A stretch of DNA of 64,000 nucleotides. Origin: a candidate division WOR-3 bacterium (GTDB lineage: Bacteria; Hydrothermota; Tepidihabitantia; SM23-42; JAOAFX01). The translations under genes and the position numbers were made by a program. The notes under the pieces are model-generated. The model did not search any database and was not told where the DNA came from. It saw only the letters and a program-made list of their open reading frames with translations. Below are positions 7,284 through 61,528 of the stretch, piece after piece (the first letter of the stretch is position 1; each line of letters opens with the position of its first letter). The stretch is taken from contig JBDRVV010000013.1 in the NCBI GenBank assembly GCA_039802005.1, forward strand, positions 1,385 to 65,384. The letters are read 5' to 3'.

Positions 7284-8024
7284 TCAAAATTTAATTTTGT
7301 ATTCAATTTTTATGGATTTTTGTTCAGGAACAAAATATATGGAATTGCTGCCATCATTTGAAATATCAACTTTCAAATCAGCGAAGAGTGCATCCAGAAT
7401 ACTATAAAGGTAGAATCCTGCAAAGACCGAAGAACTTAAAAGAAATATATGATACGACCTGTTATAAGTATTATAGAATTCATCCATATATTCAACACTA
7501 TCAGGTCCAAGTTCGAGATATTCGTTTTTTTTATTTTCTGTCTCCATCCACAAATATATTGATGAGGCAAGGCTCAAGGATGCACCGAGCATTATTAATT
7601 TTCCTTTTTTATCTTCACCTTTTATCAATTGTCCAGTCCCAGGTATAAAGCAGGAACACATTGCAGATTCTTGGGCAATCTCTTTTTTTGCATCATTTAT
7701 AATTGCTATTACCGATGAATCGGCATCGTCTTTATTCAATTTAAATTTAGGATTGAGTTTTAGCAAAATTTTGAAATGCTCCTTAGCGGAAATTTTATCA
7801 TTTATCTTAGCATAACTTAGTGCTAAGTATTTATGGGCATCAAGCTTTTCTATTTTGCTTAAATTTGGTAATACGACTTCAAGTGTTTTTATTGTGCCAA
7901 CATAATTTTCTTTCTGGTAGCAATCCTTTGCAGTATCTATATAGTTATCTACTTTCTCGGTATCATTTTTCTGAGAGAATAACATGCCCAAAATTAAAAA
8001 TACTGCACAAAAAACTCTGCTCAT
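7284..8024 (-). CDS. Hypothetical TPR-like / membrane protein
   Basis: ORF with a signal/TM segment, helical repeats, then a C-terminal hydrophobic region. Confidence 0.45.
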   Translation of the reverse strand: MSRVFCAVFLILGMLFSQKNDTEKVDNYIDTAKDCYQKENYVGTIKTLEVVLPNLSKIEKLDAHKYLALSYAKINDKISAKEHFKILLKLNPKFKLNKDDADSSVIAIINDAKKEIAQESAMCSCFIPGTGQLIKGEDKKGKLIMLGASLSLASSIYLWMETENKKNEYLELGPDSVEYMDEFYNTYNRSYHIFLLSSSVFAGFYLYSILDALFADLKVDISNDGSNSIYFVPEQKSIKIEYKIKF

Positions 8025-10555
8025 AGATTTATTTTTATACCAATCCTTGCCCGTCTTGGGGCAGTATATGCCGCAACCCAGTCATCGGTTGCAATGATTA
8101 ATGCTCTAAAGGAATGGAATGTTTCGTAAGGAGTCATAATACCGTCATGATTGAAATCTGCAGCCGGGCTATAATATGGATTGGTCAGTGAAAGAAAGTC
8201 ATTAAAATCTTCAGCCCTGATTTTTTCCAGAGACATTAAAGGATAATGAGGTGCAACTTCATAACGCTGATCAAGAAGATTGATTACTTCTAATTGTAGA
8301 TTGAAAGATATTCTATTGATATTGAATCCTTTTGCTATTACACAATCAATCTGACGCTGGAAGGGTAGATGGAAAATATTGCGCTCTTCGTATTTACCCA
8401 AATATCCGGGCGGGGTGTAAGGAAAACCATTGCCAAAATAGGCAAGAAGATAGATATTTGTCCCTAAGGGACCTTTTAATCCACCTTGAATGAAAATACG
8501 GTGACGTTGGTCAAAGTTCAAATAGTAATCTTGTGTTGGTTTGCTCACAGAAGTATCTGCATACTCACCCGCATAAGAACTCGTACCTTTTGCCCAGGAA
8601 AGGGTGTATGAGATTTTTCCTGAGAAGAAATTGTTGCTATATTCTAAGATGGTTTCCATTCCTTTGATATTGGCATATTCAACATTATAATACTGAAAAT
8701 ACCCAAGGGGCAATTGCATAACATAGCGTGTGCCCGTCAAGTCTGAAACATCTTTGTAAAAAAGATTTGTTGTTGCAGTGAGATTTTCTTTGACCAATCC
8801 CTGAAATCCGATTTCATAACTCAATGTCTTCTCAGGTCTTAACTCAGGATTTCCCACAATTGATATGAAATTGTAGTATTGTGGTGCAAGAGGCAGAAGC
8901 TCATAAAAAGAATAGACATAATCATATAGGGGCGGCTGGACATATCTGCCGATATTCGCACGGAAAAGGAAATTTTCGGTTACCAGAAATGAGCAGCCTA
9001 TTCTGGGTGAGATATTTATCTGGGGTTTCGCACCTTCAATATCCACCGCATAGTAGTCATAGCGTGCGCCAAGTTTCGCATAGAAACCTTTAATATCAAC
9101 ATTGTCCTGGACATAAACAGAATATTCCTTTGGTTGATGATTGTAAACATCCGCAATTGGATTCAAGGTATCAGTGCAGACAAAATATGTAAAATTATCA
9201 AGGTTCTGATAGATATATTCAACCCCGGCTTTTAATTCATGATACTGATGGAGTTGGAGGTTGGCTTTAAAGTTGATATTATACACTTCTGAATTCTTTT
9301 CCTGATACTGGGGATAATCACCTTCACTAATAACTTTATAATGAGCTACACCAAATGGATTCCTGTGGGTTCCCCGGGGCCATTTCAGTGTTCGGTAATC
9401 GCGAAATTTGAAATCATCAAATATCCCATAATTACCTGACTCACGCACACCATAAGTTTTTTGTGTATACAGTCTACTGACCGTGAGATTGAATAATTTT
9501 GTATTATCGGGCAGATAGTTTAAATTTATTGCGGCGAGTTCACCCTTGCGCATATCCGAACGATAATGGTCAAGATAGAATTTAAAAAATGGATCTGGAC
9601 CCGAATATCGGTCAAATTGACTTCTTGATTTTGCCCCACTCACACTAAACTTAATCTTGCCTGAAGGTGTAAAGAGCCATTTGCTGTAGATTGAATAATC
9701 TCCTCTTTGTTTATGGGGCAATATATATAATCTTGGGTCCCAATCCTGGGTTTGCATAATATCTATTGAGGCAAGCCCCTGCAAGTTTCTTGTGGCAGGT
9801 AAATGAATTGTGGATTGATAATTCTCATAACCAAAGTCATAATAAAAAGGCATAATCTTTTCGGTCTTGGCATACAGATTTCCCTGTAACTTTTTCTGCG
9901 GTCTTTCTGAGATTAAATTCACCACCCCGGACATTGCCCGACCATATTCGGCATCAAAACCTCCAGGCAGAAATATCACTTCTTCAACAATCCCTTTTGA
10001 TATTTCAATTGCGACATCCCCGGTCTGGGGATCAATAATTGAAACATTATCAACCATATACTGGACTTCAGTTGCCCTACCACCACGGACATGTAAGGCA
10101 GTATCGGTCTTTGCCACGGCTGCCTGGAATGTGATTACAGCAGGTGTATAATCAACAGGCAATGTGGCAATCTCGGCTTTACGCACAATCTGGGTTGTAG
10201 CGACATAATCCTTTTTTATCGTTGGAGTTTCTCCATAAACCGTAACCGGTGCAATCTCAATGGCAGTCTGTTTCAATGTGACATTGAGTCTTGTGGTTCG
10301 GTCAACTTCAACCAGGACATTTTCAATCCTCTTTGTCTGATAGCCCAGGCACGAGACTTCAATTGTGTACCTCCCTGAAGGCACATTTAAGATAAAAAAA
10401 TTGCCATTGTCATCAGTTGCTGCACCCATTTCAGTATTTAAAATAATTACATCGGCAAAGGTAATCGGTTCTTTGGTATCTTCATCCTTTACTACACCCT
10501 GAATCTTGCCAGTAATGCCGGTAAAAAGAATTGTAATCAAGATAAAATTGACCAT
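8021..10555 (-). CDS. TonB-dependent receptor-family outer membrane protein with N-terminal CarbopepD_reg domain
   Basis: N-terminal signal, CarbopepD_reg-like segment (GKIQGVVKDEDTKEPITFADVIILN...NGNFFILNVPSGRYTIEV), plug-like region, and a long beta-strand-rich C-terminus ending in an aromatic residue. Confidence 0.65.
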   Translation of the reverse strand: MVNFILITILFTGITGKIQGVVKDEDTKEPITFADVIILNTEMGAATDDNGNFFILNVPSGRYTIEVSCLGYQTKRIENVLVEVDRTTRLNVTLKQTAIEIAPVTVYGETPTIKKDYVATTQIVRKAEIATLPVDYTPAVITFQAAVAKTDTALHVRGGRATEVQYMVDNVSIIDPQTGDVAIEISKGIVEEVIFLPGGFDAEYGRAMSGVVNLISERPQKKLQGNLYAKTEKIMPFYYDFGYENYQSTIHLPATRNLQGLASIDIMQTQDWDPRLYILPHKQRGDYSIYSKWLFTPSGKIKFSVSGAKSRSQFDRYSGPDPFFKFYLDHYRSDMRKGELAAINLNYLPDNTKLFNLTVSRLYTQKTYGVRESGNYGIFDDFKFRDYRTLKWPRGTHRNPFGVAHYKVISEGDYPQYQEKNSEVYNINFKANLQLHQYHELKAGVEYIYQNLDNFTYFVCTDTLNPIADVYNHQPKEYSVYVQDNVDIKGFYAKLGARYDYYAVDIEGAKPQINISPRIGCSFLVTENFLFRANIGRYVQPPLYDYVYSFYELLPLAPQYYNFISIVGNPELRPEKTLSYEIGFQGLVKENLTATTNLFYKDVSDLTGTRYVMQLPLGYFQYYNVEYANIKGMETILEYSNNFFSGKISYTLSWAKGTSSYAGEYADTSVSKPTQDYYLNFDQRHRIFIQGGLKGPLGTNIYLLAYFGNGFPYTPPGYLGKYEERNIFHLPFQRQIDCVIAKGFNINRISFNLQLEVINLLDQRYEVAPHYPLMSLEKIRAEDFNDFLSLTNPYYSPAADFNHDGIMTPYETFHSFRALIIATDDWVAAYTAPRRARIGIKINL

Positions 10556-10631
10556 TTTTCCTCCACGATGTTCTAATTATAACTATGATTTTTTAAAAAT
10601 CAAGTTGTTTGTAAGTCATTTACGCAATAAT

Positions 10632-12272
10632 TTAATTGCTTACAATAACAATTGTAGTATTCAAACTATAGTTTCCTTTTTCCAACAGTACCAGATATAC
10701 GCCTGAATTCAAATCCCTAAATGAGTAGTTTAATGCATATCTTCCTGCATTCTTAAACCCATTTTCAATTATCCTTACCAGCCTGCCATCAATGGAATAG
10801 ACTTTTAAAGAAATATGCCCTGCTTCAGGAATAGTATAAGTAATCACCGCATTATCCCGCACCGGATTGGGGGAAATATTTAAAGAAAATTTTTGTGGTT
10901 TTTCCTGTTTCTGCTCTTGGATACCCGTAATCGCCTGCCTGCCCCAGTACCACCTTGCCGGATGAGAATACTGCCAGCCCTTCCAGCACATCCATATCGG
11001 GTCTAAATCCGCAACCATATCCTGACCAAAGACATAAAAGAATTGATTATTCTGGGTATCAATCCGCTTGGCAATTTGCGCCAGCCCATGCCGATAACCA
11101 AAACTGCCTGTAATATTACGCGGTGTATGCCAGTTCAACCCACCATCCGTTGAATAATTATAATACAGATTCCAAAACGCCAGTGAATCCTGTCCCGCTC
11201 CTGCCTGGGAATGCCAGAGACCAATGAGATAATCTCCACCCGTAGCAATCGTGGGATAGAAGTTCCTATTTAAGCCAGTAGATATTTCTCTACATACCTG
11301 CCCTGAACCCGGTGAGACATAGATTTTCCCAGTCGTTGGATAATTGCCAGCAATATAATCCTGATAATCAATATTATCAAATATCAATTTGGGCTCACCA
11401 TTGTCCATAACCACGGCCTGGGTCCAGAAGACCAAATTGGAATCAAAGGGCTCAGGCCAGACCATATTGTAAACCTGTTCTGATGACCAGTTTATGCCAT
11501 CGGTTGTCGTGCGGTAGTAGATATTCAAGAGTGTATCATAGTAAAAGATATAGGCAATACCATTATTAATATCAAATCCCCAGTATCTACGATAATCAGG
11601 ATTGATATAACCACCCGCCAGATGGGTCGTGAGATTACAATTGTAGGTGCGATAGATAAGACGGATGCGCCCTGAAAGATCATTTTCAACCATTCCAATA
11701 AAGATAAGATTACCGTTGGGTAGTTGTTTGCCAACATTCCGCATTGTGTTTACAATACCTGGTCCTAAATCAGTTGGCGCATCCCAGTATGAGGACCACC
11801 AGCCACCGGTTTCAAATTGCGCAACCAATCTTGAAGAAGCTACATATCCGCAATTATAAGAGATATGTGGTCCACTTCCCGCGGTATTAAATCCCGAGGC
11901 AATTGAATTGGGATAATGACACGCACCAAATTGTCCAGTATATACGCCAAAGTCAGTTAGTGATAGAGTAAAGAAATTATCGGTCTGTGAAACACTTAAA
12001 TTTAATCCCGATAGGTAACTTCTACACACAAACTGTAGTCCGGCAACCATTGGATTATATGACAAACATTCTTGTATTTGAGTCCACATTGACCAGGCTG
12101 TACCCGAGTCTATTACAAAAAAATCATTTGACATAATCACAGGTGTATGTGGTTGATTGTATAATCCTGGTGCTTCTGAAGACATCGGCTCATGACTCAC
12201 AATATCTATCGGCAAGGTTATTGCTATAATTATATTAAACACAATCAGAAGCAAGAAGACAAGTCTCATCAT
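10632..12272 (-). CDS. BNR-repeat (sialidase-like beta-propeller) surface protein with T9SS C-terminal domain, paralog A
   Basis: Signal peptide. BNR motifs (STDGGLNWH, TTDGINWS). T9SS CTD-like tail. AAGGAGG RBS. The central ~0.9 kb of DNA is nearly identical to paralog B. Confidence 0.7.
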   Translation of the reverse strand: MMRLVFLLLIVFNIIIAITLPIDIVSHEPMSSEAPGLYNQPHTPVIMSNDFFVIDSGTAWSMWTQIQECLSYNPMVAGLQFVCRSYLSGLNLSVSQTDNFFTLSLTDFGVYTGQFGACHYPNSIASGFNTAGSGPHISYNCGYVASSRLVAQFETGGWWSSYWDAPTDLGPGIVNTMRNVGKQLPNGNLIFIGMVENDLSGRIRLIYRTYNCNLTTHLAGGYINPDYRRYWGFDINNGIAYIFYYDTLLNIYYRTTTDGINWSSEQVYNMVWPEPFDSNLVFWTQAVVMDNGEPKLIFDNIDYQDYIAGNYPTTGKIYVSPGSGQVCREISTGLNRNFYPTIATGGDYLIGLWHSQAGAGQDSLAFWNLYYNYSTDGGLNWHTPRNITGSFGYRHGLAQIAKRIDTQNNQFFYVFGQDMVADLDPIWMCWKGWQYSHPARWYWGRQAITGIQEQKQEKPQKFSLNISPNPVRDNAVITYTIPEAGHISLKVYSIDGRLVRIIENGFKNAGRYALNYSFRDLNSGVYLVLLEKGNYSLNTTIVIVSN

Positions 12273-12294
12273 TCCTCCTTAATTACACAATAAT

Positions 12295-12322
12295 ATTATA
12301 CTCAAAAAAAAAAAATAGTCAA
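12295..12322 (-). promoter_or_regulatory. Sigma70-like promoter of paralog A: TTGACT-16 nt-TATAAT, with a 12-nt poly-T (A12 on + strand, 12304-12315) filling the spacer
   Basis: Read directly: the reverse complement gives TTGACTaTTTTTTTTTTTTgagTATAAT, followed by AAGGAGG and ATG. Confidence 0.6.
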
Positions 12323-12388
12323 GGGTATAATGCAATAGGGTGGGAATTCTTCCCACCCTTGCAATGAAACCCGCACAGAAGATTATAA

Positions 12389-12502
12389 AATCGGGAAGCA
12401 AGCGCTTCCACAACAACCCGGATAGCATATCATGCTAATTTCAACTTCGGTTTCTCTATTTTTATCTTCCATACAGGTTATCGGTTGGATCAGGATTTCC
12501 AT
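12389..12502 (-). CDS. Unannotated 37-aa Cys-rich peptide MEILIQPITCMEDKNRETEVEISMICYPGCCGSACFPIL; candidate RiPP precursor
   Basis: The ATG lies 1 nt after the TAA stop of the radical SAM gene, with an AGGAGGTG RBS inside that gene's 3' end. Five Cys residues cluster toward the C-terminus. A hairpin (GGGTGGGAAgaaTTCCCACCC, 12346-12366) lies downstream. Confidence 0.5.
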
Positions 12503-12503
12503 C

Positions 12504-13880
12504 TTAATCACCTCCTTTCATCACTTGCCCTTTATCCAGGGCAGTCTTTTCAAGATATTTATTTAATAATCCCCAGAAATGGTCGCATATTGCAGATTTC
12601 AACTCACTTTCAGTTTTGCATTTCTTTCTTATAACCTGGCATCCCCCCATACATAATGGCAATAGTTTACAGGATTTGCAGGGTTCTGTATCACAGGGAT
12701 GCTTTTCAAAAAAGTAGTTTATATACTGCTGATTGGGGATGAATTTACCTTCTTTTATATAACCAACTTCATCTCCGATGTCTAAATGAGAGGTACATTT
12801 ATAAACGCGGCTGTTTGGACCGACTGTGTATATACCAAAGACTTGTGCTCCACAATAAAAACTTCTTACCGGCAGCGCATTGGGAAATACTGTGTCAATA
12901 TCTTCTTCTTTGTCACTTGTTATCTTTCTAATTGCTTCATATATTGCGTTATACTCGTGGGCAGAAAATCCTTTTTCTTGAGGTGCGAAATCTGCACATT
13001 TTTGAGTATAATCTCTTAATTTCCCGGGGCGTACTACAGTATTCTTACCATATAACCAATCTGTTTTTCTTAAGAATTCAAGTACAGCATTTGCGTTATC
13101 TCGGTCAATATTTAATCTAATATCAACATGGTCAAAATATTTTTTTGCGATGATTATTGCCTCTTTTATTCTTCCAAATGTTGGTTTACGGTTTTTAAGT
13201 GGCCGGCGTCGGTTATGAACTTCCTCGGGTCCATCAAGGGTTATCTGAATCAATTTTACATTGGAATTTATTAATTCTCGGGCTATTTCTTCGGTTAAAA
13301 GATATCCATTAGTAACAATATTCGCCTCATATCTAATTTTATTAGCAGAAGCAATATTTATTAATTCAGAGCTCAATTGTTTGATTCTATCATATGCCAG
13401 TAATGGTTCGCCACCATACCAAGAAATTGATATTCCTTCTGGTTTTACCCGTTGTATCTCCGAATTTATGAACTTTAATACATTGTTGCAGTCTTGGATA
13501 GTCATTGTTTCATTAATTTCGCTCTCAAAGCAATAAATACAACGAAAATTACATGCCCGAGTAGGGAGCATCGTGATAGAAAGATTTCGCCGTTCAAATG
13601 CACCTCTGAAGGCACGGAATTTTACAAATTCAATTTCATTTACATTATCTTCTACAATAAAACCACATTCAAACATTTTTGAAAAAAGATCGTCCCTGTT
13701 AGTTCTAAGAGTAAGGTTATTAGGATTTTCTAATAAGTTTGAGACATCACTCAGATCGCAGTTTCGCACAAAAGCCAGTGCTCCAGTATAAGTGTTGTAT
13801 AAAAGATTAACCTTGCCGTCTGTACTTTTGTACCAATAATTATAGATTGATTGTTTATAATTTTTACTTGTCTTCATTGT
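12504..13880 (-). CDS. Radical SAM / SPASM-domain peptide-modifying enzyme with an N-terminal RRE(PqqD)-like domain
   Basis: CNFRCIYC (CxxxCxxC) radical SAM motif. C-terminal Cys-rich SPASM region (CGAQ...CTSH...CDTEPCKSCKLLPLCMGGCQ). An N-terminal ~100-aa region precedes the core. The ATG at 13880 is preferred over the GTG at 13994. Confidence 0.75.
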   Translation of the reverse strand, partial: TMKTSKNYKQSIYNYWYKSTDGKVNLLYNTYTGALAFVRNCDLSDVSNLLENPNNLTLRTNRDDLFSKMFECGFIVEDNVNEIEFVKFRAFRGAFERRNLSITMLPTRACNFRCIYCFESEINETMTIQDCNNVLKFINSEIQRVKPEGISISWYGGEPLLAYDRIKQLSSELINIASANKIRYEANIVTNGYLLTEEIARELINSNVKLIQITLDGPEEVHNRRRPLKNRKPTFGRIKEAIIIAKKYFDHVDIRLNIDRDNANAVLEFLRKTDWLYGKNTVVRPGKLRDYTQKCADFAPQEKGFSAHEYNAIYEAIRKITSDKEEDIDTVFPNALPVRSFYCGAQVFGIYTVGPNSRVYKCTSHLDIGDEVGYIKEGKFIPNQQYINYFFEKHPCDTEPCKSCKLLPLCMGGCQVIRKKCKTESELKSAICDHFWGLLNKYLEKTALDKGQVMKGGD

Positions 13881-14161
13881 TCGTCCCTGTTGCTTACATA
13901 AGTTTTTAATGCAAATTTCGTGCCCAGACAAAAATGTTGAAATTTCAGAAGTTTTAATTTTAACTTTTGGGAAAAAGTGTGAAAATTTATACACTATTTA
14001 TGGACACCATCAAAAACTCACGAAATTTGATAGATTTGTGAAATACAAAAGTGTATACTATTTAAACTCATTTTACACTATTTTTACACCTTTGATTTAT
14101 TTCTATACCCAGGCAATCATAATTGATCATTGCTGGAACACTTAATTCGTTCCGGGTTATG

Positions 14162-15802
14162 CTATTTTAAAAATGCAAAGAGACTGCTGGTGTTCCACTT
14201 TCCATTTTCAAGCATAAGCACATATATCCCGGCATTTAAATCATTGAATGAGCAGTCTAATTTATATCTTCCTGCATTCTTAAACCCATTTTCAATTATC
14301 CTTACCAGCCTGCCATCAATGGAATAGACTTTTAAAGAAATATGCCCTGCTTCAGGAATAGTATAAGTAATCACCGCATTATCCCGCACCGGATTGGGGG
14401 AAATATTTAAAGAAAATTTTTGTGGTTTTTCCTGTTTCTGCTCTTGGATACCCGTAATCGCCTGCCTGCCCCAGTACCACCTTGCCGGATGAGAATACTG
14501 CCAGCCCTTCCAGCACATCCATATCGGGTCTAAATCCGCAACCATATCCTGACCAAAGACATAAAAGAATTGATTATTCTGGGTATCAATCCGCTTGGCA
14601 ATTTGCGCCAGCCCATGCCGATAACCAAAACTGCCTGTAATATTACGCGGTGTATGCCAGGTCAATCCTCCATCCGTTGAATAATTATAATACAGATTCC
14701 AAAACGCCAGTGAATCCTGTCCCGCTCCTGCCTGGGAATGCCAGAGACCAATGAGATAATCTCCACCCGTAGCAATCGTGGGATAGAAGTTCCTATTTAA
14801 GCCAGTAGATATTTCTCTACATACCTGCCCTGAACCCGGTGAGACATAGATTTTCCCAGTCATTGGATAATTGCCAGCAATATAATCCTGATAATCAATA
14901 TTATCAAATATCAATTTGGGCTCACCATTGTCCATTACCACTGCTTGGGTCCAGAAGACTAAATTGGAATCAAAGGGCTCGGGCCAGACCATATTGTAAA
15001 CCTGTTCTGATGACCAGTTTATCCCATCAGTGGTAGTGCGATAGTAGATATTCAAGAGTGTATCGTAGTAAAAGACATAGGCAATACCATTATTAATATC
15101 AAATCCCCAGTATCTACGATAATCAGGATTGATATAGCCACCAGCAAGCTGGGTCGTGAGATTGCAATTATAGGTGCGATAGATAATTTTTCTATCATCA
15201 GAATAGTTTTCTATAGTAACCGCAATAAATAATATGTTTCCATTCGGAAATTGCTTACCGATATTCCACCAGGCTTTATTTATTCCTGGTCCGAGGTCAA
15301 CCGGTGGATCCCAATATGAAGACCACCAACCACCAGTTTCAAATATTCCTACCATTCTGGAATATGTTAGATAACCACAAGAAAGAGAGACATGAGGTCC
15401 AGAACCTGCAATATCAAAACCTGAGGCAATGGCAGATGGATATATAAACCCACCAAATTGACCTGTGTATACGCCGATATCAGTTAATGAAAAAGAAAAG
15501 AGGTTATCTGTTTGGGAAACATTCAAATATAAGCCGGTTCCAAATTCATGGCAAACAAATAATAGACTACCGACTAAAGCATTGTATGCCAGACATTCAT
15601 GACTTTGTGTCCAAAGAGAGTAGGCGTAAACAGAGGAGTCAACAGGTGAAAAGGAATTTGAGTTAACTATCGGAGTGTGTGATAGATTGTAAGTTTTATG
15701 CTCTTGATTTAATAGCACTAGCTCAGGTGGATTAATAGGGATACTAATCGTCACTGCCCTACTAATTTGAATGAGAATAAGAAAGAAACAAATATTTCTC
15801 AT
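14162..15802 (-). CDS. BNR-repeat surface protein with T9SS C-terminal domain, paralog B
   Basis: Same architecture as paralog A. The N-terminal ~170 aa and the last ~35 aa are diverged; the core is near-identical at the DNA level. Confidence 0.7.
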   Translation of the reverse strand: MRNICFFLILIQISRAVTISIPINPPELVLLNQEHKTYNLSHTPIVNSNSFSPVDSSVYAYSLWTQSHECLAYNALVGSLLFVCHEFGTGLYLNVSQTDNLFSFSLTDIGVYTGQFGGFIYPSAIASGFDIAGSGPHVSLSCGYLTYSRMVGIFETGGWWSSYWDPPVDLGPGINKAWWNIGKQFPNGNILFIAVTIENYSDDRKIIYRTYNCNLTTQLAGGYINPDYRRYWGFDINNGIAYVFYYDTLLNIYYRTTTDGINWSSEQVYNMVWPEPFDSNLVFWTQAVVMDNGEPKLIFDNIDYQDYIAGNYPMTGKIYVSPGSGQVCREISTGLNRNFYPTIATGGDYLIGLWHSQAGAGQDSLAFWNLYYNYSTDGGLTWHTPRNITGSFGYRHGLAQIAKRIDTQNNQFFYVFGQDMVADLDPIWMCWKGWQYSHPARWYWGRQAITGIQEQKQEKPQKFSLNISPNPVRDNAVITYTIPEAGHISLKVYSIDGRLVRIIENGFKNAGRYKLDCSFNDLNAGIYVLMLENGKWNTSSLFAFLK

Positions 15803-15826
15803 AACTCCTCCTTATTACACAATAAT

Positions 15827-15852
15827 ATTATACCCCCCCAAAAAAAAGTCAA
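15827..15852 (-). promoter_or_regulatory. Promoter of paralog B: TTGACT-14 nt-TATAAT, with the spacer made of T7G7 (C7A7 on + strand)
   Basis: Read directly: the reverse complement gives TTGACTtttttttgggggggTATAAT, followed by AAGGAGG and ATG. Confidence 0.5.
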
Positions 15853-15923
15853 GTGGTTGGATAATCTTTTTGAAATTAGCAGAAGCATATTGACTTAAAG
15901 GTAAATATCAGTAATCTTAAAAA

Positions 15924-17118: not shown

Positions 17119-17158
17119 TGCTTATTGACAGAGCAGATAATTTTTATATAATGATACA

Positions 17159-17467
17159 ATGAGAAGAAAAATGGCAGAGACCTATTATCGCGCTTCAAGA
17201 TTCTGTAGGGTTTTGGGTAATCCCACCGCATATCAAATTTTGAAAATGCTGACAAAAGGAAAAATGACCCCGACCGACCTCAGTAACGAAATTGGCCTTT
17301 CTATTAAAACTATTTCAGATGTTCTTCGTAATCTGCGCCAGGTTGACCTGGTGAGGTATGATACATTTAGTAATCGTAAGGTGTATTATCTTAAGGACCG
17401 GGCGATTAAAAAAGTTCTCAGAAATTTAGAAACTTACGCTGATAAAATGAGGTTTAAAAAATGGTAG
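17159..17467 (+). CDS. ArsR/SmtB-like winged-helix transcriptional regulator
   Basis: Small HTH protein (ILKMLTKGKMTPTDLSNEIGLSIKTISDVLRNLRQVDLV) flanked by the palindromic sites. Confidence 0.55.
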   Translation: MRRKMAETYYRASRFCRVLGNPTAYQILKMLTKGKMTPTDLSNEIGLSIKTISDVLRNLRQVDLVRYDTFSNRKVYYLKDRAIKKVLRNLETYADKMRFKKW

Positions 17468-23273: not shown

Positions 23274-23473
23274 AAACAATATTATATCCATAAAAATTGT
23301 CCAGTCAAGTGCCGCACATTTAATTCTTCACAAATTACGGGGTCTCTTGCCCAACGATAATGCAACAAGCATTATTTTTAAAATTTTTACGAATAAAAGC
23401 TGAGAACCGAATTTAGATAGATTGAAAACCTCTGTCTTGACATAAAGAAATATATGGTTATAATTATAATGTT

Positions 23474-24430: not shown

Positions 24431-25669
24431 ATGAATAACATTGTTGGAATGATTCTCGCTGGTGGCAGGGTTGATGAACTGCTCACCCTCACTGAAAAGA
24501 GACCAAAGGCAGCGGTTCCGGTATTTGGAATTTATCGGTTTATTGATTTTGTTTTAAGCAATATGATGCATTCAAAGATTGATAATGTAGGCGTTTTGTC
24601 GCAATTCAGACCATACAGCCTTATGCGTCATATTGGCAATGGTGAACACTGGGATTATATAGGTAGGAAGCGAGGAATTAGGATGCTGCCACCGTATAAG
24701 GGACTTAAAGAATCAGATTGGTACCGGGGAACTGCAGATGCAGTATATCAAAATATCTCTTTTATTGAAGAATTCAACCCTGAACATGTGCTAATCGCCG
24801 CTGCGGACCATATCTATTCTATGGACTATAAAAAGGTCTTTGCCTTTCATAAAAAGAAGAGGGCAGATGTTACCGTTTGTTTTACAAAGATAAAAAATAG
24901 ATATCCCTGGTTCGGTTATGGTATTATGGAGAAGGATGGTAGACTCATTGAATATAAAGAGAAACCAAAGGAGCCAATGTCTGATTGGGTATCAATGACA
25001 GTCTATATTTTCCGAAAGGATATACTCTTTGATTTATTGAAAGAAAATTCCCATGCTGATTCTCATGAGTTTGGTAAAGATATAATTGCCTATTTACCCG
25101 GGCGCTGTGCAATTTATGGATATAAGTTCTATGATTACTGGTTTTATGCACGAACGATTGATATGTATTATAAAACAAATATGACATTACTTGAAGGCAA
25201 AATTAAATTACATAAATGGCAGGTATGTACTAATCTTATAGAAGGTTGTGCACTGAAAGATCGTCTGCCCGCGCGCATAGAGGGCAGGGTACTGAATTCT
25301 TATATTAGTGATGGCTGTGTGGTAAAGGGAACGGTTATAAACTCAATAATTTCACCGGGAGTAGTAGTTGAAGAGAATGCCGAAGTTATTGATTCTATTA
25401 TATTCCATAATAGTATTATAAAAAGTAATGCCCGATTAAAAAAAGTTATATGTGATAAATTTTGCGAAATTGGAAAAGATGTAGAGATTGGACTTTTTGG
25501 CGCAAATATTCCATCAAAAGAATACAGGGAATTGCTCAACACAGGTATTACGATAATAGGAAAGGGAGTTAAGATTGCCCCTGCGGTAAGAATTGGTGCA
25601 AATACTGTTATATATGCGGATAAAGATATAAAAGAAACACTAATTGAACCGGGAAGTACACTGCGATGA
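24431..25669 (+). CDS. glgC: Glucose-1-phosphate adenylyltransferase
   Basis: ILAGGRVDEL...YRGTADAV motifs. C-terminal left-handed beta-helix. Confidence 0.85.
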   Translation: MNNIVGMILAGGRVDELLTLTEKRPKAAVPVFGIYRFIDFVLSNMMHSKIDNVGVLSQFRPYSLMRHIGNGEHWDYIGRKRGIRMLPPYKGLKESDWYRGTADAVYQNISFIEEFNPEHVLIAAADHIYSMDYKKVFAFHKKKRADVTVCFTKIKNRYPWFGYGIMEKDGRLIEYKEKPKEPMSDWVSMTVYIFRKDILFDLLKENSHADSHEFGKDIIAYLPGRCAIYGYKFYDYWFYARTIDMYYKTNMTLLEGKIKLHKWQVCTNLIEGCALKDRLPARIEGRVLNSYISDGCVVKGTVINSIISPGVVVEENAEVIDSIIFHNSIIKSNARLKKVICDKFCEIGKDVEIGLFGANIPSKEYRELLNTGITIIGKGVKIAPAVRIGANTVIYADKDIKETLIEPGSTLR

Positions 25670-26928
25670 AAAAAGAACTTATTGCTTTAATCCTTGCCGG
25701 CGGCGTTGGTTCGCGTTTGAGCATACTTGCACGATTGCGTGCCAAACCTGCAATCCCCTTCGGTGGCATTTATAGAATAATTGATTTTACAATGAGCAGT
25801 GTCGCCAACTCTAACATTGATGTTGTTGGTGTTCTTACTCAGTATAAACCATTATCATTAATGGAGCATATTGACAACGGTAGGCCATGGGATCTATTTG
25901 GAAAGACGAGGTTGGTTGAGATTTTACCACCGAAGACCGGAGAGGAAGTATCCGATTGGTACAAGGGAACATCAGATGCAGTCTATCAAAATCTTGGCTT
26001 TATTGAAGATTTTTCTCCAGAGATGGTAATAATTCTCTCAGGTGACCATATATACTATATGGATTATAACGACATGAGAGACTACCATATGAGAAAAAAA
26101 GCAGATGTTACGATCAGTTTTATTCGCGTTCCTTTTGAGCAGGCACATCATTTTGGTATAGCGAGATTAGATAAAAATGGCAGGATAATTGAGTGGATGG
26201 AAAAACCTAAAAAACCAAAATCTAACCTTGCTTCAATGGGTATTTATATATTCAATACAAAAATATTAAAAAATGCCTTAATAGAATCTGCAGGGAAAGG
26301 GGGGGGTGATTTTGCAAAAGATGTTATCCCTTTGATATTAAAAAATAAACTAAGGGTCTTTGGTTACGAATTCAATGGTTATTGGCGTGATGTGGGAACC
26401 ATTGATGCATACTGGAATTGTAATATGGATTTATTAAGAAAAGGTTCGGGATTGGATATAGAATACTGGAATATAAGAACCAATCTTTTTGTGCGAGGTG
26501 AAATTGGTGCCAAACCATCAGCCTATATTGGTAGATGCTCAAGTGTATCCAATTCTCTAATTTCTTCGGGTTGTTTAATTGAAGGTATCGTTGAAAATTC
26601 AATCCTGTCGCCGGGGGTAGTTATTGAAGAGGGTGCGAGGGTGATTGATTCGGTTATTTTTCATAATACAATTGTGAAAAAGAATGCGGTGGTAATAAAG
26701 GCAATAATTGATAAGAATGTAAAGATTGGTAGAAAAGCATTCATCGGTTACGGAGAATCTTTGCCTAACACAGCCCTGGGTATGAATTTATCGACCGGGA
26801 TCTCTGTTATCGGCAAGAATGCGGTTATTCCTGAAGGAATAATTATTGGAAAAAATTGTATCATCTCATCTGGAATTGATTTAAGCAAATCCAAAATAAA
26901 AAAAATTAAATCCGGCTCAACATTGTGA
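25666..26928 (+). CDS. glgD: Second glucose-1-phosphate adenylyltransferase paralog (GlgD-like regulatory subunit)
   Basis: ILAGGVGSRL...YKGTSDAV motifs. Its start overlaps the glgC stop (ATGA). Confidence 0.7.
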   Translation: MKKELIALILAGGVGSRLSILARLRAKPAIPFGGIYRIIDFTMSSVANSNIDVVGVLTQYKPLSLMEHIDNGRPWDLFGKTRLVEILPPKTGEEVSDWYKGTSDAVYQNLGFIEDFSPEMVIILSGDHIYYMDYNDMRDYHMRKKADVTISFIRVPFEQAHHFGIARLDKNGRIIEWMEKPKKPKSNLASMGIYIFNTKILKNALIESAGKGGGDFAKDVIPLILKNKLRVFGYEFNGYWRDVGTIDAYWNCNMDLLRKGSGLDIEYWNIRTNLFVRGEIGAKPSAYIGRCSSVSNSLISSGCLIEGIVENSILSPGVVIEEGARVIDSVIFHNTIVKKNAVVIKAIIDKNVKIGRKAFIGYGESLPNTALGMNLSTGISVIGKNAVIPEGIIIGKNCIISSGIDLSKSKIKKIKSGSTL

Positions 26929-52225: not shown

Positions 52226-53563
52226 TTAAATTTGCAAGAGCTCTTTTGCTTGATCTATCAATCCTTTTGCCTTTCTCTTATCATTTGCCTCAGCAATTAT
52301 ACGGACAATCGGTTCGGTATTTGATGGACGGATATGGATCCATTCATTCCTTGTGGTTATTCTGATACCATCGGTAAGGTCAACTTTACCCTTGAATTGT
52401 TTTAAAATCAATTCTTTCTTTTTCTCAAAATCTTTAGTTGAGATATCAACCTTGTCTTTGAGCATAAAATAATCAGGATAAGATTTTACTATTTCTGAAA
52501 TTTTTTTATTACTCTTTTTAAGCATTGCTAAAATTATACCGGCGCCGGTCAATGCATCACGGGTGCGATTTATCTTGGGATATATCACACCACCATTCCC
52601 TTCGCCACCAATCACTGCCTTTACTTCATTCATCTTTGATACTACATTTGCCTCACCGACCTTTGCGCGATATACTGGACATTTGTGCTTACGGGCAATG
52701 TATTCAATCAAACTTGATGTAGAAAGATTTGTAGCAACTGGTCCTTTTTCTTTGTTTAATATAAAATCCGCAGCAAGGGCAAGGGTTTTTTCTTCGCCAA
52801 TCGCATTTCCTTTTTCATCAACGATTGACAGCCTATCTCCATCCGGGTCAAGGGCAAGACCCAGATCAAGGTTATATCTTTTTACAAGTTCGCATAATTT
52901 GGTGATATGTTCAGGCGTTGGTTCCGGTGGTCTTGGAAAGCGTGGTTTGAAATTACAATGTATTTTATACACCTTACAACCCGCCATTTCAAGGAGCGAA
53001 GGCAGGGCTTTTGAACCCGCACCACAAACTGCATCAACGCCAATTTTCAATCCGAGTTTTTTTAATTTAAAATGATTGATTATTTCTTTTATGTGTTCTT
53101 CATAAGGATTTTTATAATCAGTGCATTCACCAAAATAGCCCATAAACTCAATTATCTTATCAGGGTAAAGGTCAAAAAAATCAATAAATACTGAAAATCT
53201 TCTGAATTCCTGTTCATTAATAAATTCACCCCTTGAGGTAATAAATTTTATCCCATTCCATTCCGGTGGGTTATGACTGGCAGTTGCGACCGCTCCACCA
53301 TCTGCCTTTAGTTTCTTGACCATAAAGACGACTGTTGGTGTGGGAACAATCCCGAGGTCTATTACATTACATCCCATCATATTAAATCCATCTATGACAC
53401 CACCACCTATCTGTGAATGTGAATCTCTTGCATCATATCCCACAACCAATTTTTTTGCATTTAAGAAGAATGCATATACCTGTGCATAGAAACCAGCGCT
53501 TGCATATCCTAAATCCTTAAACGCAATCCCTCTCAATCCTGAGACAGAAAAAATTCTTGGCAT
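52226..53563 (-). CDS. Phosphomannomutase/phosphoglucomutase
   Basis: TASHNPPEWNG active-site Ser motif. Confidence 0.8.
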   Translation of the reverse strand: MPRIFSVSGLRGIAFKDLGYASAGFYAQVYAFFLNAKKLVVGYDARDSHSQIGGGVIDGFNMMGCNVIDLGIVPTPTVVFMVKKLKADGGAVATASHNPPEWNGIKFITSRGEFINEQEFRRFSVFIDFFDLYPDKIIEFMGYFGECTDYKNPYEEHIKEIINHFKLKKLGLKIGVDAVCGAGSKALPSLLEMAGCKVYKIHCNFKPRFPRPPEPTPEHITKLCELVKRYNLDLGLALDPDGDRLSIVDEKGNAIGEEKTLALAADFILNKEKGPVATNLSTSSLIEYIARKHKCPVYRAKVGEANVVSKMNEVKAVIGGEGNGGVIYPKINRTRDALTGAGIILAMLKKSNKKISEIVKSYPDYFMLKDKVDISTKDFEKKKELILKQFKGKVDLTDGIRITTRNEWIHIRPSNTEPIVRIIAEANDKRKAKGLIDQAKELLQI

Positions 53564-53596
53564 GAATTATTATATAAAAAAAATAAAAAATGTCAA

Positions 53597-55471: not shown

Positions 55472-55700
55472 AACTTATTATACACCTATTTATCCTGGTG
55501 TCAAGGAAAATACCTCTTACTTTTCCTCTCCTATATATTTTTATTATCTTCTAAACTGACTATTGATTTGTAATCAAAAATGATTACAATTGTTATCAAA
55601 AAAGGTGTCAAGATATGGATCCTGTAAAGAAGATTTTGGGTAATCTCAGTGTGTAAGATTTCTTAAATAATCAACATGGATAATCCAAAAATATTTTTGA

Positions 55701-60462: not shown

Positions 60463-61528
60463 ATTTTTTACCTCCTTTTATGTCCACCGATGTCCAGGCA
60501 TATAATGGTTTTATTTTAATGCCTGAACACCGGTCATTAAAGTGGATAATGTAGCCGTGGATATGCTGTGGGAGAATGTCATTTATTGATTATTCTTTAT
60601 CATGGAAATCAATATGTTATGCAGCAATATTACATAATATATTGTATTTCCTTTAGGGTGGTCACAATGTTTATCTTTGTGAAGTAATTATTGCCTTCGT
60701 TAACTCCGCACAATTTATTGACTTTTTAAAGGCATTGATAATTTCCATTTGCTAATTTTTTGACCCTTTCCAAAATTCTGGATATGTTTTAATTTATCTG
60801 GCATAAAAAATTTTATTTCATCAGCTGGATATTGGCAGAAAGACTAAATTCCAGCTTTCTGCTTCTCGCTAACATAATTGAAATATATCAATTTGCCAAT
60901 GTTTCGAATATTTCCTACTTGGGATTGATATTGCATGCATAACATATTGATATTAAAAAACCTGTGCCGCAAGCGGTCAATATCACTAATCCTGGTCAAG
61001 CACCGGAAAGTGAGTTGTTAAAGACCAAATCCCCCAACAGGGGATACAAAACATAAGGACAGCTGCTACTGACGATGCAGTAAACGGCTGAGATATGGTA
61101 TCTGATAATAATTATAACCCGCAACGAAAGGGGTAGGAGAGGTAGAGCTCGACATTAATCTCTAAATCACTGTTACTACCCCCCCCATATATTTTTATGC
61201 ATTCAACCTTGAGAGCGTTTCTAACGGTAGTCTTGGTCTAAAAGCGGTCTCGGGCTTCAAACAGCAGACTTTTGGTCAGAAGACCCATCATATATTATAA
61301 TCAAAATTTTCAAATCGTCAAGGGGTAAAATGCACTTTCGGACTAACCCCATGCATTTTCCTCAGTATACAGTATAATAGTAGCTATATATTATATTAGT
61401 TACTACATCCCACCAAGTATGGGTCACAATTCTAAAGCCGATGGATGGAAAAAAACAGGCAGATTGTCTTCTCTATTGACTTTTGCGTATTATTAAATAA
61501 ACTTAAGTAATATAAAGGAGTACAATAT

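Follow-up and report, generated by a model that had tools for sequence, protein, structure and literature searches.

The window examined here, that is, the whole stretch of 64,000 nucleotides of a candidate division WOR-3 contig, carries on its minus strand two paralogous genes, A and B, in whose promoters the spacer between the −35 and −10 hexamers consists almost entirely of mononucleotide runs. Any base gained or lost in such a run would change the distance between the hexamers, and an earlier note on this DNA had proposed both tracts as candidate phase-variation switches. Do they operate as slippage-driven switches of two surface-protein genes, or are they static spacers, products of faulty sequencing and assembly or, in the case of paralog A, the tail of a transcription terminator?

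Promoter architecture of the two paralogs

The elements upstream of each gene, all on the minus strand, are as follows.

12322..12317: −35 hexamer of paralog A, TTGACT (read from the sequence; also by regular-expression and consensus scans)
12316..12301: 16-nt spacer of paralog A, composed of A, T12 (12315..12304) and GAG
12300..12295: −10 hexamer of paralog A, TATAAT (11 of 12 consensus matches with the 16-nt spacer)
12280..12274: ribosome-binding site of paralog A, AAGGAGG
12272..10632: paralog A gene, 545/546 aa (open reading frame; Pfam, AlphaFold, Foldseek)
15852..15847: −35 hexamer of paralog B, TTGACT
15846..15833: 14-nt spacer of paralog B, composed of T7 (15846..15840) and G7 (15839..15833)
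15832..15827: −10 hexamer of paralog B, TATAAT (also by promoter scan)
15825-15830: alternative −10 of paralog B, TAATAT, overlapping TATAAT and 16 nt from the −35 hexamer (promoter scan)
15813..15807: ribosome-binding site of paralog B, AAGGAGG
15802..14162: paralog B gene, 546 aa, with the same architecture as A (open reading frame; Pfam)

The upstream region of paralog A reads cccTTGACT-A-T12-GAG-TATAAT-attattgtgtaatt-AAGGAGG-a-ATGATG, and that of paralog B, which starts at the ATG at 15802, reads cacTTGACT-T7-G7-TATAAT-attattgtgtaat-AAGGAGG-agtt-ATG. The two spacers, T12 within 16 nt and T7G7 within 14 nt, had been described in the earlier note together with consensus hexamers and an AAGGAGG before both genes, and these descriptions proved exact in coordinates and counts. 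In paralog B the final T of the −35 hexamer runs into the T tract, giving a physical run of T8. Paralog A possesses two adjoining ATG codons, at 12272 and 12269, of which the second is likely the true start, since it reproduces the SD spacing of paralog B and coincides with the start called in a related assembly (L001, below).

T12 is the longest homopolymer of the window, the runner-up being 8 nt long, while the C7/G7 run of paralog B is one of three G/C runs of at least 7 nt. Extrapolation of the run-length decay predicts about 0.2 A/T runs of 12 nt per window, so that T12 taken by itself is only mildly unexpected. What appears remarkable is that the run fills the spacer of a consensus promoter and that this arrangement recurs in the paralog and in orthologues.

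We also considered other functions for these regions. The TA-rich TATAATATTATT of paralog B supplies the alternative −10 hexamer TAATAT at exactly 16 nt, a hexamer that is rare at this spacing in the lineage (3 of 323 TTGAC[AT] sites, versus 32 for TATAAT). There was no alternative −35 hexamer in register with TATAAT, and inspection by eye of 15853-15923 disclosed no convincing other promoter for paralog B, the shifted TAATAT being the only qualifier. UP elements usually occupy the zone from −40 to −60; a role of the paralog B tract as UP element of the divergent Fe-ADH-like gene was rejected, as it lies about 77-85 nt upstream of the start of that gene, which has a separate promoter of its own. 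Likewise, no Rfam family was found anywhere in the window, and hence an explanation of the 5′ region as a riboswitch or leader was dropped.

A spacer length of 16 nt is the norm in this lineage

The significance of spacers of 16 and 14 nt depends on what is usual in these bacteria. A scan for TTGACN-Nx-TANAAT with x ranging from 11 to 21 yielded 14 sites in the window, 12 of them with x = 16 and most of these directly upstream of ORF starts, the promoter of paralog A among them; the two exceptions were paralog B (14) and a 17-nt site within a coding region. Other WOR-3 loci, 186 kb in total, gave x = 16 for 31 of 46 sites, and every other length was represented by only one to three sites, a background level. 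A length of 16 nt is thus the sharp, modal and nearly invariant promoter spacing of this lineage.

It follows that paralog A stands exactly on the norm and paralog B 2 nt below it. The claim that A has a near-optimal spacer is therefore borne out in a sharper form than it was made. The companion claim, that the spacer of B is a poor one, agrees with its distance from the norm, but the presence of TAATAT at 16 nt means that the promoter is not necessarily poor or off: with a weak −10 hexamer in register, paralog B may be expressed at a low level rather than silenced.

Several additional features of promoters and simple sequences in the window deserve mention. WOR-3 promoters are strikingly canonical (TTGACA/TATAAT), as seen for instance at 17125-17152, 23437-23464, 53569-53596 and 55477-55504, and in several of them the ATG lies merely 5-6 nt past the −10 hexamer, as in the HTH regulator gene at 17159 and the phosphoglucomutase-like gene at 53563; their mRNAs would accordingly be leaderless. 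The promoter of this phosphoglucomutase/phosphomannomutase-like gene (53569-53596, minus strand) has a 16-nt spacer made up nearly entirely of T (T6-A-T8-A), potentially another slippery spacer, in this case at a housekeeping gene. A G8 run at 26299-26306 (plus strand) falls within the coding sequence of an NTP_transferase/GlmU-like gene (25666-26928) and could be a simple-sequence repeat of the frameshift type in a gene for sugar nucleotides (surface glycan). Finally, a segment of about 1 kb (60463-61528) without any ORF of at least 120 aa and without match to an Rfam family harbours C8 (61179-61186) as well as a consensus promoter (61321-61294, minus strand).

Spacer tracts vary between closely related assemblies

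Contigs related to the locus were reached through homologues of the paralogs and through neighbouring genes (HTH regulator, Fe-ADH-like, radical SAM), and tract lengths were compared among consensus assemblies. The spacers found were the following.

Window, paralog A: A-T12-GAG, 16 nt
L167 (Logan SRR27730047): A-T12-GAG, 16 nt
Window, paralog B: T7G7, 14 nt
L172 (Logan SRR27730047): T7G7, 14 nt
L169 (GCA_039802225.1): T7G7, 14 nt
L002 (GCA_039802065.1): T7G7, 14 nt
L029 (JZ-4_201808_bins_67): T7G7, 14 nt
L001 (GCA_039802045.1): T8G8, 16 nt
L004 (GCA_039802265.1): T10-AGTGTA, 16 nt
L005 (GCA_965649065.1): T11-AGTGTA, 17 nt
L006 (GCA_039802285.1): T9-AGTGTA, 15 nt
L003 / L008 (Logan SRR27457925 / DAIRCK): TTGACA-T8-ACAGAG, 14 nt
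L007 (QZM1.Bin.155): T8-GAG, 11 nt
L168 (GCA_900174565.1): GGGGTCAAATTATTTG, without a tract, 16 nt

The most informative group comprises L004, L005 and L006, three MAGs that encode an identical 541-aa orthologue on contigs 99.8% identical to one another. Their 7,237 aligned bp contain 14 substitution columns, and indels occur solely in the promoter T tract (T10, T11 and T9, respectively), while eight further runs of 6-8 nt covered by the alignment are constant. A comparable situation was found between the window and L001, which share 98.4% identity with 92 substitutions along the 6 kb upstream of the gene: only three columns contain indels, namely one additional T and one additional G in the spacer, which is thereby lengthened to 16 nt from 14, plus a T in the 5′UTR. 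Both tracts of L001 are therefore one base longer, and the promoter lands on the 16-nt norm. These two controlled comparisons are decisive for considering the tracts as indel hotspots.

The earlier proposal that the tracts are prone to slippage is hence supported by T9, T10 and T11 in nearly identical MAGs and by T7G7 against T8G8, but it fits less well with T7G7 itself, which is the same in five of six assemblies spanning two N-terminal allele types; between the window and L002, 99.2% identical over 4.3 kb, there are no indels at all. At the consensus level the T7G7 tract is thus not wildly unstable; it looks more constant than would be expected of free slippage, unless 14 nt is the favoured state. 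Moreover, T8G8 in L001 could have been acquired by recombination rather than by slippage in situ, since the L001 gene is a recombinant in which upstream sequence of B type is joined to a UTR and gene of A type. Part of the single-base differences within T9-T12 among short-read MAGs could also be noise from assembly or from PCR slippage. A metagenome scan with the loose pattern TTGACN{8,26}TATAATATTATTGTG matched at least 120 stretches; among the matches listed with a T/G run or AAGGAGG none resembled this locus, and a longer anchor such as CCACTTGACT…TATAATATTATTGTGTAAT is better suited.

Beyond individual comparisons, about 250 kb of WOR-3 DNA were surveyed for spacers that include a run of at least 7 nt, which occurred in 6 of 12 consensus promoters of the gene family and in 2 of the 35 remaining promoters with 16-nt spacing (Fisher one-sided p = 0.002, a value that is indicative only, as the family promoters are related by descent). 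Spacers of the family promoters with such runs measured 11, 14, 14, 16, 16 and 16 nt, to which the variants of the L004 group add 15 and 17, and those of family promoters with shorter runs measured 16, 16, 16, 16, 16 and 17 nt. Off-register spacers accordingly go together with tracts, as slippage predicts. The tract is kept in orthologues with unrelated flanking sequences (T8 in L003/L008, T9-11 in L004-6 and T8 in L007), and yet it is dispensable for the promoter, given that the related orthologue L168 displays a normal 16-nt spacer without it. In L168 (2718-4344) gene calling splits this orthologue into two ORFs that overlap (102 aa and 447 aa), which suggests a frameshift or a pseudogene.

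The paralogs encode predicted T9SS-exported beta-propellers

The T9SS C-terminal sorting domain PF18962 (Por_Secre_tail) scored above the gathering threshold in both paralogs, with its positions 1-75 of 75 aligned to residues 466-543 of 546 (33.4 bits for paralog A, cut-off 27), and the N-terminus of both products looks like a signal peptide according to sequence and model. Around 80 full-length homologues, named by NCBI ‘T9SS type A sorting domain-containing protein’, come nearly all from candidate division WOR-3 MAGs; exact-sequence look-up of paralog A, with either start, and of paralog B returned no record. The AlphaFold model, for which 40 sequences were aligned (mean pLDDT 85.7), shows a hydrophobic N-terminal helix (H2-16), an all-beta body and a C-terminal beta-sandwich. 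The best PDB matches in Foldseek were 5mvh, 4irt and 5mum, six-bladed propellers of the GH145 or putative neuraminidase kind (E 3e-10 to 1e-9, TM 0.49-0.66), with a sequence identity of merely 10-12%. Paralog A also contains motifs resembling Asp boxes (SxDxGxxW-like), TTTDGINW and YSTDGGLNW, and the Pfam search of both paralogs gave no BNR match. Taken together, the sorting domain, the model and the structural matches lead us to predict that the products are secreted, surface-attached, sialidase-like six-bladed beta-propellers and cargo of a T9SS.

The neighbourhood of the two genes, all on the minus strand, includes the following features.

12383..13994: insert between the paralogs, radical SAM enzyme plus 39-aa Cys-rich peptide ORF (open reading frames; Pfam)
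13994..12504: radical SAM enzyme (Pfam)
12502..12383: 39-aa Cys-rich ORF MEILIQPITCMEDKNRETEVEISMICYPGCCGSACFPIL, which has a GGAGG to itself
12338..12358: hairpin rich in GC, GGGTGGGAA-gaa-TTCCCACCC, whose stem is extended, shortly before the paralog A promoter (−29.8 kcal/mol, z = −3.5)
10603..10576: separate promoter of the TonB-dependent-receptor-like gene, TTGATT-N16-TATAAT (promoter scan)
10555..8021: downstream partner, a CarboxypepD_reg/TonB-dependent-receptor-like outer-membrane protein (Pfam)

The order in the window is B, radical SAM, the 39-aa ORF, A and the TonB-dependent-receptor-like gene, and the pair formed by a propeller gene and a TonB-dependent-receptor-like gene occurs also in L002, L003, L004-6 and L168. 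The hairpin probably ends the radical-SAM/peptide transcription unit. In L002 a single copy of the propeller gene directly precedes the TonB-dependent-receptor-like gene and the radical-SAM/peptide insert is absent, while in L001 the A-type gene follows the B-type upstream region and has behind it a 69-aa ORF and the gene of a LanM-like enzyme. These differing arrangements indicate that the locus is a hotspot of recombination and insertion.

Some features of the inserts are of interest in their own right. The radical SAM enzyme and the 39-aa Cys-rich ORF look like a RiPP pair and the region like a strain-variable RiPP island adjoining the surface-protein gene; in L001 (7721-11302) the equivalent position is taken by the 69-aa ORF and a LanM-like lanthipeptide synthetase (DUF4135 + LANC_like). 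Three copies of a motif similar to AAATAGTGTA lie within the 167 nt that separate paralog B from the radical SAM gene (window ~13985-14095, minus strand); the motif may be an operator of the RiPP unit.

Comparison of A and B at the DNA level revealed a conserved island formed by the promoter and the 5′UTR, followed by about 600 bp of coding sequence with 50-70% identity, about 950 bp that are nearly identical and a last stretch of about 100 bp that diverges again; in the proteins, identity amounts to 55% over the N-terminal 215 aa and to 99% over the 290 aa in the middle. The alleles of one species (98-99% identical in their flanks) fall into at least three N-terminal types, represented by window A/L001, window B/L169 and L002/L029, with 52-69% identity at residues 1-215, 95-100% at residues 216-505 and renewed variability in the last ~40 aa. 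Such mosaic alleles suggest that part of the propeller is either exchanged by recombination in the manner of cassettes or subject to diversifying selection, and a hypervariable N-terminal third combined with a conserved core is typical of the cargo of contingency loci. In addition, in two independent assemblies, L166 (1-140; GCA_039802105.1) and L173 (1-50; Logan SRR27730018), the homology to the region upstream of paralog B extends precisely as far as the −35 hexamer and breaks off at its 5′ edge, at the junction …ccaaccac|tgttattccaaaggtaaaatgtcccc…, shortly before the contig end. The new sequence matched none of the other contigs compared, and the junction represents a structural variant, or possibly a mobile element, joined at the promoter.

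A proposed slippage-based switch compared with other explanations

Our findings make this a credible contingency locus at the level of transcription, comparable in type to porA, opc and vlp, and a slippage-based expression switch on the promoter of each paralog is the explanation that we favour and consider reasonably probable. The promoter anatomy, the 16-nt norm, the polymorphism of the tracts between near-identical genomes and the surface-protein nature of the products are established. Each paralog would be transcribed from its own sigma-70-type promoter, and slipped-strand mispairing at replication would add or remove a base of the tract that fills the spacer. Because the RNA polymerase of this lineage expects a spacer of 16 nt, each step would shift the promoter into or out of register and raise or lower the transcription of that one paralog. 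The result would be a population in which cells display A, B, both or neither of two T9SS-exported surface beta-propellers with a strain-variable N-terminal third. As assembled, paralog A (16 nt) is predicted to be ON and paralog B (14 nt) to be low or OFF, although TAATAT may sustain some residual activity. If the reductions caused by the loss of one or two nucleotides in porA are a guide, expression may change by degrees and not in an all-or-none manner. We infer that slippage generates the indels at high and reversible rates, that they affect transcription and that selection, for example through phage or predator pressure or changes of substrate, acts upon the outcome.

It is possible, but on the whole unlikely, that the architecture is static, the tracts being ordinary T-rich or G-rich spacers, perhaps favoured because they make the DNA rigid or curved, whose lengths reflect slow neutral indel drift fixed in separate lineages; alleles might then differ in expression without this being used as a switch. 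The constancy of T7G7 in five of six assemblies, the T-rich spacer (T6AT8A) of the housekeeping phosphoglucomutase-like gene and the tract-free promoter of L168 would all be at home in such a scheme, and tracts of 7-8 nt lie at the lower edge of usual hypermutability; in porA, a 7A tract is far more stable than an 11G tract (PMC3639595). However, with three tract lengths against only 14 substitutions in three assemblies 99.8% identical, at the sole indel site in 7.2 kb, drift appears too slow. Neither would it be expected to keep uninterrupted runs of T8-T12 in orthologues whose proteins are 67-80% identical and whose flanks are unrelated, and spacers of 11, 14, 15 and 17 nt should be deleterious if constant expression were needed, yet the ORFs are intact.

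That the differences in length were introduced by sequencing, PCR or assemblers, the true lengths being equal everywhere, seems to us quite improbable. All the data are metagenome assemblies, and the variable runs (T10-T12 counting the T of the hexamer, and G7-G8) are the longest in their regions and thus the most error-prone; nevertheless, independent Logan assemblies (SRR27730047) reproduce exactly the T12 and T7G7 of the window, T7G7 recurs in five assemblies, no other homopolymer of 6-8 nt varies, and the double +1 in L001 arrives at the 16-nt norm, which would not be expected of random error. Still more remote is the idea that T12 is mainly the U-tract of an intrinsic terminator of the radical-SAM/peptide unit and overlaps the promoter by accident. 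The strong hairpin adjoins the promoter, and UUGACUA-U12 comes after the base of its extended stem (…ACCC). On the other hand, T12 starts 7 nt past the extended stem and 22 nt past its GC-rich core, outside the 0-2 nt after the GC stem at which the U tract of a rho-independent terminator is placed, and the terminator scan did not call the hairpin/T12 combination. Paralog B and the orthologues L003, L004-6 and L007 possess a tract without an upstream hairpin, so that a dual role, although possible, would leave the family-wide pattern without explanation; with a strong hairpin ending only 7 nt before the run, T12 may also aid termination.

The switch on each promoter could itself be one layer of a wider system of surface variation in a free-living thermophile, a reading that we regard as rather doubtful in its entirety. 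Independent slippage switches on each paralog, one of them with a composite T-plus-G double tract that could act as a two-rate vernier, would be combined with recombinational exchange of N-terminal ‘cassettes’ between strains. All of them would diversify a T9SS-displayed propeller that partners a TonB-dependent-type outer-membrane protein, plausibly for escape from phages or predators. The cassettes comprise at least three allele types with a nearly identical core and breakpoints at or near the promoter. If this multi-layer reading were true, contingency loci would constitute an ecological strategy well beyond host-associated pathogens.

Relation to known phase-variable promoters

Switches based on slippage in promoter spacers are textbook mechanisms in pathogens (Neisseria, Mycoplasma, Haemophilus, Bordetella) and, to our knowledge, essentially undocumented in uncultured environmental phyla. 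Full-text literature searches retrieved no paper tying WOR-3 to phase variation, T9SS to homopolymeric phase-variable genes or contingency loci to MAGs. The mechanism is classical; judged by the literature that can be searched, the novelty lies in its setting in an uncultured free-living hot-spring phylum, the T9SS cargo, the composite T+G tract and the sharp 16-nt rule. If confirmed, it would mean stochastic switching of the cell surface in hot-spring communities, probably under phage pressure, and the 16-nt rule would provide a simple in silico readout (ON at 16 nt) for the mining of MAGs. Likewise, homopolymer ‘errors’ in promoters of metagenome assemblies may be biology and not something to polish away.

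In the T-tract ‘rheostat’ of sabA in Helicobacter pylori and the TA-repeat of hifA/B in Haemophilus influenzae, repeat length tunes the transcription of adhesin or fimbrial genes. The sabA tract lies beside the −35 hexamer and not within the spacer, and that of hif is a dinucleotide repeat common to divergent promoters, whereas in WOR-3 it is the spacer that the tracts occupy, and the divergent Fe-ADH-like gene is served by a separate promoter. Closer in anatomy are porA and opc of Neisseria, where, as here, a mononucleotide tract separates the −35 and −10 hexamers of a gene for an outer-membrane or surface protein and tract length sets the length of the spacer and thereby a graded expression. 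In the poly-G tract of N. meningitidis porA, 11G gives high expression, 10G a 2-fold and 9G a 13-fold lower one (PMC3639595), and opc has a poly-C promoter tract (Sarkari 1994, as cited in PMC5084427). In contrast to poly-G and poly-C, the WOR-3 tracts are poly-T or composite T+G and their switching is predicted from sequence comparisons; the host is free-living, uncultured and of hot-spring origin rather than a host-adapted pathogen, and the protein is T9SS cargo.

The poly-A promoter tracts of vlp in Mycoplasma hyorhinis turn expression ON and OFF and, as in the locus described here, each of several paralogous surface-protein genes bears an A/T homopolymer in its own promoter, allowing independent and combinatorial switching (PMC10502178). 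The vlp products are lipoproteins with repetitive, size-variable C-terminal regions, whereas the variable part of the WOR-3 proteins is the N-terminal third of a beta-propeller and their diversity lies between strains. The vlp tracts measure about 17-20 nt, and those of WOR-3, with 7-12 nt, are shorter. With its separate tracts and the divergent exposed regions of its products, the vlp family nevertheless appears to be the closest analogue of the two WOR-3 paralogs.
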